Assembly: GCA_036677365.1 (NCBI GenBank)
Contig: JAVBWN010000014.1
Location: 1 to 64,000, forward strand
Reading direction: 5' to 3'
Origin: Acholeplasma sp.
GTDB taxonomy: Bacteria > Bacillota_I > Bacilli_A > Acholeplasmatales > UBA5453
DNA length: 64,000 nucleotides
A program made the position numbers. This document shows positions 6,001-57,000 of the stretch, piece after piece. Numbering within the stretch: position 1 is the first letter of the stretch; each line of letters starts with the position of its first letter.

Positions 6001-9000
6001 TTGAATTATTTCTTTTTCACTATTGTATACTTTCAATCCTTAAGCATCGAATCGACTAGAATAAAAATGATATATTTCCTGTAAAATACACACAACAAGA
6101 AAAGTCGCTTAAGATAGATTTGATAAAGCTATATTTATCAAAATCGTGTTAGCCAATAGATTACCACACTCATAGCCAAATGCATAGAAAGATCATCCAC
6201 ATTTTTGGATGATTTTATTGGATATATCTATTTGAGTATAAAATGACTTAGAACCGCTCTGGCATGGTCTGATAACGGGGTAGATTGATGGGTGATGTTA
6301 TCGACATGAACAATCACTGTTTCTGCACTCGCAACCACCACACCATTTTGAAACAGATGTTGGTAGAACGTAATCGATGAGTTACCCAATTTTGTAACCC
6401 CACTGCCAATCTCTACCGTGCCTGGCCAGTGGATTTCATTTAATAACGATAGGTTATTTTGAACAATAACAAAAGAGCACTGTTCTTTATGAAGCGGGTG
6501 TTCTGGTTGATATAAAATTTCGACACGCCCAGTTTCAAGAAATTCTGAGAAATGGATGTTGTTGACATGACCTTGGCGGTCTGTATCACCATAACGGATT
6601 TTATCGTAGGTTTTAATTGGAAAATCTTCTAGTTTTAATTTGGTCATAATTGAACCCCCTATACTAAAAGTAGTATACCTAATTCTACATAAAAAAGGAA
6701 ATGAAGTCATTTAATAGGGTAAACCCTACGTAAACTTAAGTGATTGTGATTCAAAATGATTGTTATGAAGGTTTATTTACTATAAAATGACAGTAAGATT
6801 TATCGATGTATCACAGGAGGTATGGCCATGAAAACCGTAGTGAATCGATGTTATAATCAACTCAATGCGATTGTTGTTGAAGAAAGAAATTTACCGGAAT
6901 TGAAAGACAATGAAGTATGCATTCAAGTACACGCTGCAGCATTGAATAAATCCGATTTATTATTTGCTTTGGGTAAACCCTTTATGATTAAGATGATGTA
7001 TGGATTGAAACAACCCAAGAAAATATACCCAGGGTCTGATTTTGCAGGTGAAATTCTTTCTGTTGGTTCGAAAGTCACTGAGTTTAAACCTGGGGATCAC
7101 GTGTTTGGTGATTTATCTGGGGCGGGCTTTGGTGCTTTCGCCGAACAATTGATCGCACCATCATCCAAAGTATGGTTGATACCAAAAGGCTACTCTTTTT
7201 TAGAAACCGCATCCATGCCGATGGCTTTAGGTACAGCACTAACCGCGGTTCAAAAAGTATCGGATTTAAAACACAAACGTGTACTCATCTATGGCGGTAG
7301 CGGTGGTGTTGGACGATTCTTGGTTCAAGTCGTATTGCATTTGGGTGGTAGCGTCACTGTAGTATCGAGTCAAAAACACTTCCTTGATTTCAAACAATTG
7401 GGTGTGAGTGATTTACTGGATTACACCGATCCAGCCTTCACTTTACCAAGTCAAGCTTTTGATGTGATCTTCGCCGTGAATGGTTATCAACCCATCCAAT
7501 CTTACGCGAAATCATTGGTTAAAGGGGGGCAGTGTATTGTGATCGGTGGTAGTGGGAAACAGATATTTGGCGCGATGACTTTAGGTCCGTTTTATAAGTT
7601 ATTCCAGCAAAAAGCATTTAAGAGTGTCATTGCGAGTACTGGACATAAAACACTCCAATCGATAACAAATATCGCCAACCAATTCAAAATAGATGTCCAA
7701 ATGGGTCATGTATATGCTTTAATAGAAGCAAATCAAGCTTATCAAGATTTTAATAGTCACAAATATACTGGTAAATATGTATTTGATATGCAAAAATGAT
7801 ACACAAAAAATCCACAATTAAGAGTTGAAAAACTCTTTTTTTCTTATTTTACATTACTCCCTAAAAAATAAATAGGAAATGCTTACCTACGTAAAAATGT
7901 ATAGATGTACATAATTCTTCCTTAGGTTTAAGTTTTACCTTTGAATATGTAAAAAGTTGGATTTCTTTGTTTTTGCCTTTAAAGGGTGTTTTTTGAGTTG
8001 ATAAAACGTATAAATGTACTTAATAACAAAAAATGCCCAATTAGGGCATAATTTTGTGTAATTAGTCCATTTTATCGGACCAATTCAAGATTATTTTGGA
8101 GTCTCTGTTAACCTTAAAGGGTCGTGTTTTTAGGGGCTCTTTAACCTTAACTGGTAAGAAATTGCCAATTAGAGAAAAATAGAGAAAGTAGTGGTATCCA
8201 TGGGTAAATAATGGAAAATAGTTAACCTACTACAACTGGTAAGAAAATGACCTTAAGTGGTAAAGAGTAGAAAATAAGGGAAAAATCAATACCATATTAT
8301 TAATATATCAATATGCTGGAGATGCAAGTAAAATTACATTATACGGAATCATGTTAGAATAACTACTATGTGATACTTTAACATAATATACCTGTCCTGA
8401 ATTTAAACTTACAACACATCTTGCGTTTAAGTTGTAAACACCGTTTGAATCATACCAATTATCGTTTTGTGCAATTATGTTACCATTAATATCATAAATA
8501 GTAATAATAGTGTTGACAGTCCCAAGCGTTTGAATAACATACTCTTTTGTTATGCCGACCGTAAATTGATAAACATTAAACTGATTAATTAACAAGAAAT
8601 TAACTTGAGTATTTAACTGTAGAACACCTGTCGTAGCATAACCAACCTTAAGATTAAAACTACCAGTATGAGCAGAGTATCTCATTTTAGCTTGAATATA
8701 ATATGTATTGTTCCTATTTAGGTACTGTATTATTTTTGCATTAAAACCATCTCCACTATCATCATCAGTGGCGATTACATTACCATTGATATCATATATT
8801 GTGAGATAAGTATTAGAACCACCACTAGTTTCAAATGTATATGTTCCTGATCTACTTGGTATAAATTTAAAGTATTTGGTTTCACCATTTTTTGTAATTG
8901 TATTAGCAACAATCTGATGTTCATTTAATGCCTGAGTACCTCTTTTATAATTTCCGTAATTGTAAACACTTCCTGATGAGTCTACAGTATTAACTGAACC

Positions 9001-54000: not shown

Positions 54001-57000
54001 GAGGATATGAAGAAATATATTAGATTGGTTAGGATCAATGATTATAATAGTTATAGCATTTACCTAAATGTATTGAGCGGTAATGAAAGTGAATATCATC
54101 TTTTCGATTCTGAAATGAGTCTAAAACTTAAATACAGCATCCAAAATGTAAAATACTCAGTTTACATTTGAAGTTCGGATTCGTGTTATGTCCGTCTCAA
54201 ATACTGGTTCAAACTCGTGTCACCTATTCTTTTTTAGATATAAACATTTCAATCAGCAGTCTACCAATCAATTAGCAGTTTTCTCGGTAGACTCTTTTTT
54301 ATACAAAAAAATGCCCAATAAGGGCATAAATTTGTGAAATTAGCTCGTTTTTTCGAACCAATTCAAGATTAGTTTGGAGGCCCCGACCGGATTTGAACCG
54401 ACGATCAGGCAGTTGCAGTGCCGTGCCTTACCACTTGGCTACAGGGCCATTTAAACGTGCTATTACATTATAAACGGTAAATAGCACGTTTGTCAATTAG
54501 GTGTTTAGTGTTAAGTTTGTAAAACGATTTCTTGGTTGTGGGGTATGTGAAGATAGTATGGTATTTGTGGTATCAAAACTGCTGTAAACAGACTTTTGAA
54601 GTTGTAGTTCAGCCAGTACCATATCTCTTAATAATGTACCATCAAAGTTCGGATTAGACCCGTAGATGAATGGGTTATCGGTCTTATCAAAGATATAATC
54701 GTTGGTAGCGACTTTATACAATGTACCTGGAACAAACTCAGTTACAGTGGTACTATAGGCATCACTCGAACGATTGATAAAGTTTTGAATGACAGCGCCA
54801 TCTAAATACACGGTTTTAATGGTGTTATCGAATGGGAATATTTTATATAGTTTACCTAAAGTAATCGATTCATTGCTTGCCATCGAATCTCTGGTGCCAC
54901 CATAGTTATGGAAAGCGATGTCTGCGTTGGTCACTTGTCTCATCAAATCGGCTAACCAGTCCGATAAAGTGGATGATGGGATATAACGCGCTGCTTTGAT
55001 GATTTCTGTGTTGAATAACACATCGGTTTCTGCCTTATAACCATCGATCAATGCTTTCACTGCAGGATCTGGTGTATTTAATGCTGAATGGGTTTTGACA
55101 TTATTTGCGGTGATGGTGTTGCTATTTAAATCGATGCGGATATTACCGACATATTTACCATTCGAACTGCTTTGGATGATGGTGGTAGAACCGATGGTTT
55201 GAACATACCTCGAATGGGAGTGGGCATTGAAAATGATGTCCACTTTTTTATTGCCTGTGAATTGGGAAACTTGTGAATTGATGTTGCCGGAATCGTGCGA
55301 TAAGACAAATACATAATCGACATCTTCTTCTGTTCTTAAATATTCTGCGTAGTATTCGATGATCGAAACTGGGGATGCGAAGACGTAACCTGTGATTTTA
55401 CTTTGAGCAATCGAGGATTCTAGTCCATAACCCATCGTGCCAATGATACCAATCTTGATGTCACCTCGTTGGATGATGGTATACGGTTCTAAGTGTTCAA
55501 TCATGGTTTCGGTGGATTCATAATACACATTCGCACCTAAGAGTGGGAAAGTAGCTTCCCCATTGCTGGTATCACCATCAAAATAATTGGTGATGACATC
55601 GATGCCCCAGTCGAACTCGTGGTTACCTAAAACCATCGCGTCAAATCCCATGGCATTCATGATTTCTAAGGTTGAACGACCTAAGTAATAATTGGATAGT
55701 GCTGAGCCTTGGAACATATCCCCACCACCGAGTAAAATAACACCATCTGGGTTATTGGTACGGTGGAAATTGACGTAATTGGCGATGTAGGCTAAGCCCA
55801 AGTCATCGGTCCCTTTTTCAATCGAACCGTGCAAGTCATTTAAATAGAGAATATCGATATAATTGAGTTCAATGGGGTCTTTAGACCATTCAGCCACCAG
55901 CGTGATGTCTTGTGTGATTGGGGTGTTAAAGTTGAATACTGCGCCATTGATGGTATCGATACGCCATAAAACAAAGGTATAGCCAATACGGGTTGGGTCA
56001 TTGGGTGTCGGCACTTTTTTGCTTTCTTCCACTTGGGCTGGATTGACCAATGAACCCCCATTGGAATCAAAAGTAACCGTATAATAAACAGTCGCGTCTA
56101 ATTTCAATACTTTCACATTGAAGTTTCTTGAAAATTGATAACCTTCTAAAGATAACATCACTGTTAATGTTACAACGCGGTCACCAGCTTCAAAACTGGG
56201 TCTGGTGACAACCCCTAGATTAGAAATCACTTCAGGTGTATTGGATTGCCAGGAAAGCTCGATGGTCTTTTCCTTGTAGGTTAAAGTGGATGGAAGTGTT
56301 AAATGCGTATCGGTTACACTGGGTTGAGAAAGACTTGCGGATGCTTCTAATAAGAATGCATTGTAGTCGAATGGTTCGGTGTTATTTTCCACACAAGCCA
56401 CCAGTGAAAACCCAAGAAATGCTGTTAAAACCAGTAATAAAACTTTTTTCATATGACAAAACTCCTTATACATTAGCATTTTATTATAGCACGAAAACGC
56501 ATTCAAAAAAAGTAAGAATATTTAAGGACAATCGGGTTGACAAAGAAAATACTTCGGATTATAATAAAGTTGAATTAGCACTCATTATTATAGAGTGCCA
56601 AAATTAGGAGTTGATACTATGATGCCACAAATGGAAAACTACGATAAAGACCCGAATTTATTGGAAAAGTTTGGACGTAATATCGTTGAAGAAGTGAAAA
56701 AAGGTAAAATCGACCCTGTGATTGGACGTGAAGATGAAATCCGTCGAATGATCAAGATTTTATCGAGAAAAACCAAAAATAACCCTGTTTTGATTGGTGA
56801 ACCCGGGGTCGGTAAAACCGCAATCGTCGAAGGTCTCGCAAGACGCATTGTCGATAAAGATGTGCCGCTGGGTTTACAAAATAAAACGATTTATGAACTT
56901 GACTTGGCTGCGTTGGTGGCTGGGGCTAAATTTCGTGGTGAATTTGAAGAAAGACTGAAGGCGGTTTTGAATAAGATCAAAACTTCTGATGGCGACATCA

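Follow-up and report, generated by a model that had tools for sequence, protein, structure and literature searches.

Tailed dsDNA viruses of Mollicutes (the Acholeplasma L3, Mycoplasma P1, and Spiroplasma SpV3 types) have wall-less hosts and cannot need an endolysin. In the literature searched on these viruses, neither a holin cassette nor a family-wide loss of lysins was found described. Holin-endolysin cassettes are known from Firmicutes siphoviruses. In Roseburia phage Shimadzu (LR596903) and Dulem virus 37 (PP511443), a homologue of the holin that we call B126 stands at the end of the tail module (35–36% identity), and homologues of its holin-like companion, A105, are found in Firmicutes siphovirus cassettes beside CHAP, NlpC/P60, and amidase lysins. 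Unlike these cassettes, the one in the window studied here (the whole 64,000-nt stretch of an Acholeplasma sp. contig, C14) has no endolysin; its membrane genes overlap, a terminator follows them, and a nucleotidyltransferase (NTase) gene precedes them.

A phage of Anaeroplasmataceae, NatCom_34063 (PV036447.1, Ca. Heliusvirales), has a host in the same order, a holin of the same family (48%), a pair of serine recombinases, and no annotated lysin among its 71 features, but differs in its head, replication, and tail modules and lacks the NTase. The main text of the paper on the Ca. Heliusvirales lineage mentions neither lysin, holin, nor Anaeroplasm, and the absence of a lysin is not discussed there (PMC11283538). 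The window terminase is 26–29% identical to that type, and its best match among deposited phages is at 40%; the prophage of a related genome, G254, was the only one to match a deposited member.

Two enzyme groups resemble the NTase. RlaP enzymes (PF10127), including phage enzymes of the T4 NrdC.11 type, share with it a Pol-beta NTase domain, a helical domain, and the GS/DxD/acid motif; PMC12776372 describes them as appending one to two NMP to RNA 3'-OH ends. Compared with RlaP, the window NTase (~200 aa) scores below the Pfam cut-off, has no RNA ligase neighbour, and keeps a fixed place in the late operon. In Hailong (HalA/HalB), an NTase of like size, and perhaps of like fold, adjoins membrane protein genes, as here; the window NTase differs from it in showing no sequence match, in having no fixed partner, in being dispensable, and in that its partners are holin-like one-helix proteins.

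The prophages and their host

The survey's finding was of a complete 46-kb siphovirus-type prophage in tRNA-Cys, and both coordinates and gene content bear it out. An HK97-type siphoprophage of 46 kb occupies contig C14 at 8020..54379, at the 3' end of the tRNA gene, with the following features:

8020..8101, no strand assigned: left att repeat, the original tRNA-Cys trailer with the TTTGGAG core at its end
8308..12005, minus strand: accessory genes beyond the terminator, variable in content (here a LytTR protein, a membrane protein of 277 aa, and a secreted protein of 795 aa)
12155..12186, minus strand: hairpin with a U run, resembling a terminator, at the end of the late operon directly after the holin (-13.7 kcal/mol, z -3.9)
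12228..12608, minus strand: holin B126 (PHROG 13712, Holin_LLH-like, one N-terminal membrane helix)
12601..12918, minus strand: holin-like A105 (PHROG 1863, weak XhlA; one membrane helix and a coiled-coil-like tail)
12905..13510, minus strand: Pol-beta NTase, 201 aa, of a compact RlaP-like phage clade by motif residues and structure/atlas neighbours
13511..14305, minus strand: tail-tip protein "tail264" (PHROG 6779), constant upstream companion of the NTase
14307..16623, minus strand: Tal-like tail protein (509 aa, PHROG 7064) and Dit
16623..21421, minus strand: tape measure protein (TMP), chaperones, major tail protein, neck and connector genes
21427..26376, minus strand: HK97-type capsid, prohead protease, portal, terminase
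27476..45242, minus strand: HNH, MetK, ParB-methylase, defence-like cargo (kinase, OLD-like ATPase, methylases)
45402..50759, no strand assigned: replication organiser, C5 methylase, excisionase-like and antirepressor-like genes, tyrosine integrase, repressor pair
51060..54171, plus strand: two large serine recombinases
54298..54379, no strand assigned: right att repeat, a phage-borne trailer copy restoring the tRNA 3' end
54375..54448, minus strand: tRNA-Cys(GCA), the integration target

The att direct repeat, also reported by the survey, was verified; it is 82 nt long, its copies are 85% identical, and only its last 5 nt lie inside the tRNA gene, the remainder being tRNA trailer. The congener G009 shows the empty site: there, tRNA-Cys and its trailer lie next to the orthologue of the gene on the left flank. 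The prophage has head, neck, and tail genes, Dit, TMP, a pair of serine recombinases, and one tyrosine integrase; the terminase, portal, prohead protease, capsid, tube, TMP, Dit, and integrase, together with the att sites and the empty site, are those of a temperate HK97-type siphovirus. At the place of the 8308..12005 cargo, relatives carry other genes.

At the end of the late operon, the NTase and A105 genes overlap by 14 nt, and would be translationally coupled, while A105 and B126 overlap by 8 nt. The operon is closed by a small membrane protein of a holin family: B126, which the survey had already named a PHROG holin, matches PHROG 13712 with an E value of 1e-21, and scores 21.2 bits with Pfam Holin_LLH, below the cut-off of 24.9. 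The hairpin behind it is missing from the list of the consensus terminator scan. None of 53 ORFs (51 inside the prophage, 2 flanking) matched a lysin family in PHROGs or Pfam. No hydrolase domain was detected in the Tal-like protein/Dit region; the single-sequence fold of the Tal-like protein reached a pLDDT of only 30 and gave no structural reading.

A second prophage spans contigs C25 and C31, as the survey proposed: the contig ends overlap by 107 nt, and the portal reading frame continues across them. No att repeat was found for it. In both prophages the tail module is followed by the NTase and then by two membrane genes of one helix each, and the terminator stands directly behind this pair; in the second, three fibre/accessory genes stand between tail and NTase. 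Its membrane pair gave no holin-family match, and no lysin family was found among its own genes (29 + 13 proteins scanned, clear first-prophage homologues not being rescanned). The described ending of both prophages, an NTase and two holin-like membrane genes with no endolysin, was thus verified in its layout and in the absence of lysin families. In neither was a phage-encoded peptidoglycan hydrolase recognized with PHROGs and Pfam; many ORFs are without a family, so an unrecognized lytic enzyme could be among them.

The host genome (99.86% complete) contains no PF00905 or PF00912 match, and no PBPs, transglycosylase, SEDS, or MurG were found in it. One Mur-ligase-like gene is kept, and an Amidase_2 gene lies on contig C35, outside both prophages. 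PBPs were found in 0 of 21 other genomes of the family. Judged by its genes, the host has no peptidoglycan synthases.

The lysis cassette across the phage family

The survey had reported no lysin family in the prophages, and no Amidase_2, Amidase_3, or GH25 in five related viral records; at the place of the cassette, the absence of lysin families proved to extend through the phage family. The cassette layout was retained in 127 of 135 loci found with tail or holin queries, the NTase not serving as query; these loci form 54 clusters, 48 of which retained it, as did 50 of 50 metagenome loci. Seven lysin references gave no match at the place of the cassette in family loci, and a scan of the following genes revealed no hydrolase family. 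Four different holin pairs are swapped within the conserved layout. In locus L186, which lacks the NTase, a 227-aa gene behind the holins was considered as a lysin, and rejected as a short-chain dehydrogenase. A holin pair without an endolysin in a host lacking peptidoglycan synthases is supported, and the statement extends to the whole phage family. Beside endolysins, just behind the lysin, is where B126 homologues stand in phages of walled hosts, and distant A105 homologues flank lysins.

As an overall explanation we favour, with a probability of roughly 0.55, a temperate siphovirus whose Acholeplasmatales host is free of peptidoglycan and which lyses that host with membrane proteins alone. 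A105 and B126 would descend from an ordinary Firmicutes holin-endolysin cassette from which the endolysin was deleted; with the membrane as sole barrier, timed holin lesions and osmotic rupture would release the virions. We regard this part of the explanation as quite probable.

Some viruses leave wall-less hosts by budding. The membrane pair could likewise be non-lytic and serve chronic release by budding or vesicles, or the prophages could be domesticated remnants, a reading we consider improbable. The likely source run, from which only assembled contigs were available, shows flat read depth across host and prophage, with no sign of induction, and related chromosomes still carry orphan holins and remnants of holin pairs. 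Against this, the gene sets are intact and syntenic in numerous divergent copies as well as in viral contigs, and a 93–97% identical relative of the G254 prophage has been deposited as a complete phage genome. Contigs of RNA runs span the cassette of related strains; such contigs are uninformative on expression or induction.

The nucleotidyltransferase

The motif residues of the NTase are G17 S18, D29, D31, E53, K134xxY137H138xxR141, and K171. G17, D29, and D31 are invariant over 44 divergent aligned rows, the third acid place is held by E53 or D, and no invariant C-terminal tyrosine, such as the tyrosine-primed oligo-dA synthesis of Hailong would call for, is present in this alignment. In the predicted structure (pLDDT 93), a Pol-beta catalytic motif with three acids is combined with a C-terminal helical domain, as in RlaP. 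The RlaP model matched 18 of the 44 members weakly (best E value 1e-4, below cut-off) and none for the window protein; the nearest neighbours are viral RlaP-like clusters and structures, and atlas neighbours are 21–42% RlaP. No ligase family was found in the prophage tables, an RNA ligase gene being the operon mark of RlaP. Motif and modelled fold point to a compact RlaP-like Pol-beta enzyme. Neither a single-protein viral scan nor a search among deposited phages gave a match, but an alignment-based search did find relatives.

Pol-beta NTase models, those of PADLOC and NCBIfam included, match 12905-13510 at the N-terminal motif only, and memberships in the MNT antitoxins, CD-NTases, and aminoglycoside NTases were therefore rejected. 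An MNT-HEPN toxin-antitoxin was rejected too: the score is 22 bits against a cut-off of 60, the protein has 201 aa against ~100 for MntA, and its neighbours are tail and membrane genes.

The survey had placed the NTase in the lysin slot. As a matter of position this stands weakly: in lysin-bearing phages with an A105 homologue, the lysin comes before it in ~7 and after it in ~14 of 32 loci, and the lysin-proximal place of B126 homologues agrees. That the NTase replaces the lysin is not supported. It goes with the tail module: six of the 54 family clusters lack it, and no lysin has returned in any of them; it stays while the four holin pairs are exchanged; and it is absent where the same holin serves another tail type. 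Of 22 B126 loci lacking tail264, 21 have no NTase, the remaining locus being incomplete.

The best reading, we infer, includes a late-operon enzyme acting on RNA ends. Rather than a lysis enzyme, the NTase would be catalytically active and RlaP-like, an enzyme that came with the tail module, is produced late, and most likely adds nucleotides to RNA 3' ends, which would sustain translation against host ribonuclease defences; we give this part nearly an even chance. Against an RNA-end role stand the missing RNA ligase neighbour, the score under the RlaP cut-off, and the near-constant place before the holins, which fits a lysis role equally.

Such a role could be that of a lysis timer, in which a HalB-like nucleotide product, or adenylylation of the holin, keeps the membrane proteins closed until infection is far advanced; such a guard would matter more when no wall buffers a premature hole. 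The coupling of the NTase to A105, its position immediately ahead of the membrane pair in almost every family member, and the appearance of HalB among its top folds (Z 9.5, 170 residues aligned, rmsd 4.0; E 6e-5 in the structural search) fit this proposal, as does the combination of an NTase with a membrane channel described for Hailong in a passage of PMC13434031. We nevertheless think it unlikely, as HalB ties with ANT(4') and lies below viral RlaP-like folds (TM 0.46 vs up to 0.72), and as the partners are of four exchangeable types that also occur without the NTase, in the six clusters and with another tail module, which is unlike the obligate pair of Hailong, whose HalA channel is toxic without the NTase (no HalA model was compared). 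A PDB sequence search matched neither HalB nor RlaP, which says nothing on fold.

Equally unlikely, in our view, is a role in the virion or in tail assembly, in which the NTase would alter a tail protein, or would travel in the tail tip and enter the cell to act early against host defences. Its presence does follow that of tail264 and not that of the holins, and it adjoins tail264 or fibre genes; yet this is gene position alone, the six clusters without NTase still carry tail264, and the NTase matches no structural protein family.

Lysin-less prophages in relatives with peptidoglycan genes

The survey's view of a cassette fitted to a wall-less host agrees with the lack of peptidoglycan synthases in the window's host, but near-complete lysin-less prophages are also present in PBP/mur-positive genomes of the same order (G254, G025, G045, and G026; the lysin scan included a pass over ORFs of at least 100 aa). 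In G254, the prophage and a class A PBP are on one contig. MnmG on the G026 prophage contig is only slightly closer to PBP-positive families (58–60% vs 54–57%) and is indecisive for binning, so the link between prophage and host rests on G254:C6 and G025:C1. Counting against the favoured explanation, a few holin-lysin cassettes were seen in bins with PBPs, on short contigs, including those in G289 and G248.

In pneumococcal phages, the holin is known to set off autolysis of the host. The lysin-less prophages, and the amidases of their PBP-positive hosts, could mean that an envelope-degrading step is needed, supplied by an unrecognized phage gene or by host autolysins set off by the holin, and that lysin loss is unrelated to wall loss. 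We hold this to be unlikely: in the tail264 family no unknown gene is conserved behind the holins, the host in the window lacks peptidoglycan that could be cut, and most host amidases found are CwlD-like spore enzymes.

A link between cassette and wall loss therefore holds only if the PBP-positive hosts are without a load-bearing wall when growing. Their gene kit suggests this. Spo0A, one SEDS, and a SpoVD-like PBP were each found in 5 of 5 hosts, a CwlD-like amidase in 4 of 5, and MreB in 0 of 5, a sporulation-type set with which the growing cells may be wall-less; the single SEDS passes the FtsW cut-off and fails that of SpoVE, and class A PBPs are also carried. According to a passage of PMC12713402, division in C. 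difficile uses a class A PBP, which counts against a spore-only reading. Of Anaeroplasmataceae, 40–60% retain peptidoglycan and sporulation genes, and whether they are walled or the genes vestigial was left as an open remark (PMC10868615). That the prophages of PBP-positive relatives are no exception, their hosts' peptidoglycan genes serving the spore only, has in our estimate somewhat less than an even chance.

More tentative still is the general proposal that tailed phages across Acholeplasmatales, belonging to two or more unrelated virion types, have lost the endolysin and rely on holins alone for lysis, even in hosts that keep PBP/mur genes, because these are wall-less when growing and make peptidoglycan for the endospore only (one SpoVE-like SEDS, one SpoVD-like PBP, CwlD, Spo0A, no MreB). 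If true, the lysis cassette would reveal at the genome level a kind of cell not yet described, one that forms spores but grows without a wall. In the boldest version, itself unlikely, the conserved NTase would also time the holins through a nucleotide. The earlier remark on Anaeroplasmataceae would be sharpened into the prediction that peptidoglycan is confined to the spore, for which phage gene content would be independent evidence. The NTases define a compact phage clade with one conserved place across >60 divergent phages. The prophages also offer a minimal system in which to test if holins suffice for the release of a tailed virus, and a cultured relative carries a near-identical prophage.

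Two prophages and the end of their late operon

The window, which belongs to a 1.97-Mb genome, carries a complete siphovirus-type prophage at tRNA-Cys, as the survey's finding had it. GC content is 28-35% inside 8020-54379 and 36-41% outside, and an 82-nt direct repeat, 85% identical, lies at both borders. Apart from its last five bases, the repeat is the trailer of the tRNA, so that the phage brings its own trailer copy. In a genome of the same genus (G009), tRNA-Cys and its trailer adjoin the orthologue of the left flanking gene, and this arrangement is the empty integration site. 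Searches with PHROGs and Pfam identified terminase, portal, prohead protease, capsid, neck, tube, tape measure, and Dit genes, together with two serine recombinases, a tyrosine integrase, and repressors, while no lysin family was found among the 53 ORFs, in agreement with the absence of endolysin claimed earlier. The likely source run holds host and prophage in a single contig with even depth; related prophages and remnants occur in other runs.

Features of the first prophage
54375-54448, minus strand: tRNA-Cys, holding only the last five bases of the 82-nt repeat
13511-14305: tail264, tail-tip protein, at the late-operon end, followed by the nucleotidyltransferase
12905-13510: NTase, 201-aa Pol-beta nucleotidyltransferase, between tail264 and A105
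12601-12918: A105, one-helix holin-like protein, between NTase and B126
12228-12608: B126, holin, last gene of the late operon
12155-12186: hairpin with a U run after B126 (z -3.9)
34077-34112, 38223-38258, 39092-39127, 44598-44633: copies of a 36-nt repeat

The reading frames from tail264 to B126 abut or overlap. The second prophage reported by the survey, across contigs C25 and C31 of the same genome, is real: the contig ends share a 107-nt overlap inside the portal gene, and gene by gene it shares 28-74% identity with the first prophage (28% for the NTase). Its membrane pair, which gave no holin-family match, is followed by a similar hairpin.

Several observations concern the remaining gene content. 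At 48616-54171, the early-region tyrosine integrase occurs alongside a terminal pair of large serine recombinases. The 36-nt repeat (copies 75-83% alike) precedes four cargo genes, has no clear copies elsewhere in the genome, and may be promoter- or operator-like, or the trace of cassette insertion. Both prophages encode MetK and a ParB-methylase (window 30315-32762; C25:60422-66650); the first also carries a kinase with an OLD-like ATPase, and the second a BpuSI-type restriction system and Shedu. In a near-identical prophage (L022, 10984-15440; genome G005), the post-holin cargo consists of a set of bacteriocin-like genes together with a C39-peptidase ABC exporter. Cargo has enlarged a related prophage, G026:C1 about 24,500-101,700 (L019-L021, L145, L146), to about 77 kb; among the added genes are two for RHS-repeat proteins, one of which ends in an AHH nuclease tip, and many for small proteins that are secreted or lie in the membrane. 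Locus L033 (G003:C22, 6979-7422) and contigs of runs X4/X16 show remnants that connect the 3' end of the NTase and the holin genes with the att trailer; such remnants persist at tRNA-Cys of related strains, at a depth greater than that of tail genes.

A holin cassette with a nucleotidyltransferase across the phage family

The NTase alignment, used as a query, matched 112 viral stretches. Of the 80 retained, 68 contained tail264 and a holin, and in 52 at least 1 kb lay beyond them. To avoid circularity, tail264 and the holins were used as further anchors, loci ended by a contig edge before the holins being excluded from the counts. With tail264 as the anchor, 44 of 54 genomic loci were informative and 42 had the NTase; with the holin anchor, 91 of 154 viral loci had both tail264 and holin, and 85 of these the NTase. 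Taken together, the NTase was present in 127/135 loci, corresponding to 48/54 clusters at 90% identity, and in all 50 informative loci among the 80 kept of 127 metagenomic tail264 loci. None of seven lysin references (a set without GH25) matched in anchored or metagenome loci. Genes after the membrane pair are variable cargo, whose representatives contained no peptidoglycan hydrolase family and one sub-threshold peptidase match. Four membrane pairs occur in the family, one of them with the Pfam holin Phage_holin_4_1 above cut-off. The tail-NTase-holin cassette without a lysin is thus a family trait. Judged by record titles, related loci probably belong to Acholeplasmatales and neighbouring wall-less orders, and one cultured strain has an identical (100%) tail264.

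The survey had placed the NTase "in the lysin slot", which holds only weakly, and for position alone. In phages of walled hosts, B126 homologues stand directly or two genes behind an endolysin, and in 32 more distant viral loci with A105 homologues (not de-duplicated), a lysin comes before in about 7 and after in about 14; the place of the NTase is therefore sometimes occupied by a lysin elsewhere. Replacement of a lysin by the NTase is not supported: the eight NTase-less loci, which fall into six clusters and represent two changes on the tail264 tree, have no lysin either, and 21/22 B126 loci without tail264 also lack the NTase (the remaining one is cut short, and a few of the 21 are cut upstream). 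The NTase follows the tail module while holins are exchanged. Orphan B126 homologues lie amid host genes, with no phage genes nearby, in L394 (G294), L396 (G043), and L397 (G278). The 164-kb contig G258:C1 (L398, L399, L405) breaks into short ORFs under table 11, has TAG within matches to a holin and to an amidase, and is probably a stop-recoded phage in the bin.

The NTase family is small, with 117 representatives at E 0.001, and was found in 29/307 genomes of the order, within prophages in all but one of ten inspected. The enzyme is probably active, since G17, D29, and D31 are invariant and conservation extends to a third acid and a KxxYHxxR motif. Its model (pLDDT 93) combines a helical bundle with an NTase domain. 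Among PDB folds, ANT(4') (Z 9.7) and Hailong HalB (Z 9.5) were tied with TM under 0.5; viral nucleotidyltransferases fitted better (TM up to 0.72), its neighbours in the atlas belong to viral clusters that include RlaP members, and PF10127 (RlaP) was weakly matched by 18/44 members. No ligase lies beside the NTase in this prophage. We therefore put first a predicted RNA-end, counter-defence role. A putative Hailong-like holin timer (PMC13434031) and a putative virion role come next. Outside prophages, L013 (G047:C7, 1456-3135) encodes a 559-aa fusion of the NTase to a domain that by eye is radical-SAM-like, beside an AbiEii-like gene.

Wall genes of the hosts and a possible spore-only peptidoglycan

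The claim that the cassette is fitted to a wall-less host agrees with the window's own host, whose 99.86% complete genome has no transpeptidase or transglycosylase, no tblastn match to SEDS, MurG, SpoVD, class A PBP, or CwlD, and a single Mur-ligase-like gene, by inference FolC; PBPs were found in none of 21 other genomes of its family. A lipoprotein of 1080 aa whose C-terminal domain is Amidase_2 (C35:23271-26513), encoded amid other large surface proteins, perhaps serves in scavenging foreign peptidoglycan.

At face value, the claim is contradicted by lysin-less prophages in genomes with PBPs and Mur ligases. PBPs occur in 60/307 genomes of the order, in agreement with PMC10868615, and B126 in 26/307, 11 of them PBP-positive. 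Four of the 11 carry near-complete prophages: those of G254, G025, and G045 are of another virion type without the NTase, and that of G026 has it. The other seven have two partial prophages (G255, G288), one remnant, three orphan holins, and one contig of doubtful origin. No peptidoglycan hydrolase family was found among the scanned proteins of these hosts' prophages (ORFs of at least 100 aa, less some cargo). A class A PBP lies on the G254 prophage contig, and Spo0A and a SEDS gene on that of G025. Over about 30 kb, the G254 prophage shares 93-97% identity with a deposited complete phage that has a holin and for which no lysin is annotated.

Five PBP-positive hosts of family f2 (G254, G045, G026, G025, and G288) were examined. 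All have Spo0A and exactly one SEDS, and none has MreB. Against SpoVD (cut-off 688), their class B PBP reaches 603-684 bits, compared with 281-322 for the next model; SpoVE is the best-scoring model for the SEDS in 4/5, but only the FtsW cut-off is passed, and a CwlD-like amidase is present in 4/5. Within their family, SEDS occurs in 54/106 genomes, as a single match in 50, and Spo0A, by a count of the genome lists, in 52/54 PBP-positive genomes; the two exceptions are 64% and 74% complete. Being related, these genomes are not independent of one another. The gene set resembles a kit for the spore cortex that lacks elongation machinery, and growing cells may consequently be wall-less. Against this, the hosts carry one or two class A PBPs, enzymes that can drive division in C. 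difficile (PMC12713402); moreover, Amidase_2 occurs in 8/106 and GH25 in 3/106 family genomes, some of them within holin-lysin cassettes on contigs that are a few kb long and of uncertain binning.

Tailed viruses of Mollicutes have long been known, and loss of lysin where a wall is absent is expected. Literature listings on holins, lysins, or prophages of Mollicutes, Acholeplasma, Mycoplasma, or Spiroplasma, subscription papers and supplements aside, contained no paper on such a cassette, the main text of the Heliusvirales paper mentions neither lysin nor holin, and a listing on Anaeroplasma and spore cortex genes contained no paper on that subject. Of interest are the holin-only cassette that runs through the whole family, the conserved NTase whose presence is unexplained, and the prediction of spore-only peptidoglycan. 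The PBP-positive members are possibly wall-less spore formers; if their growing cells have no wall, lysin loss would track the vegetative wall.
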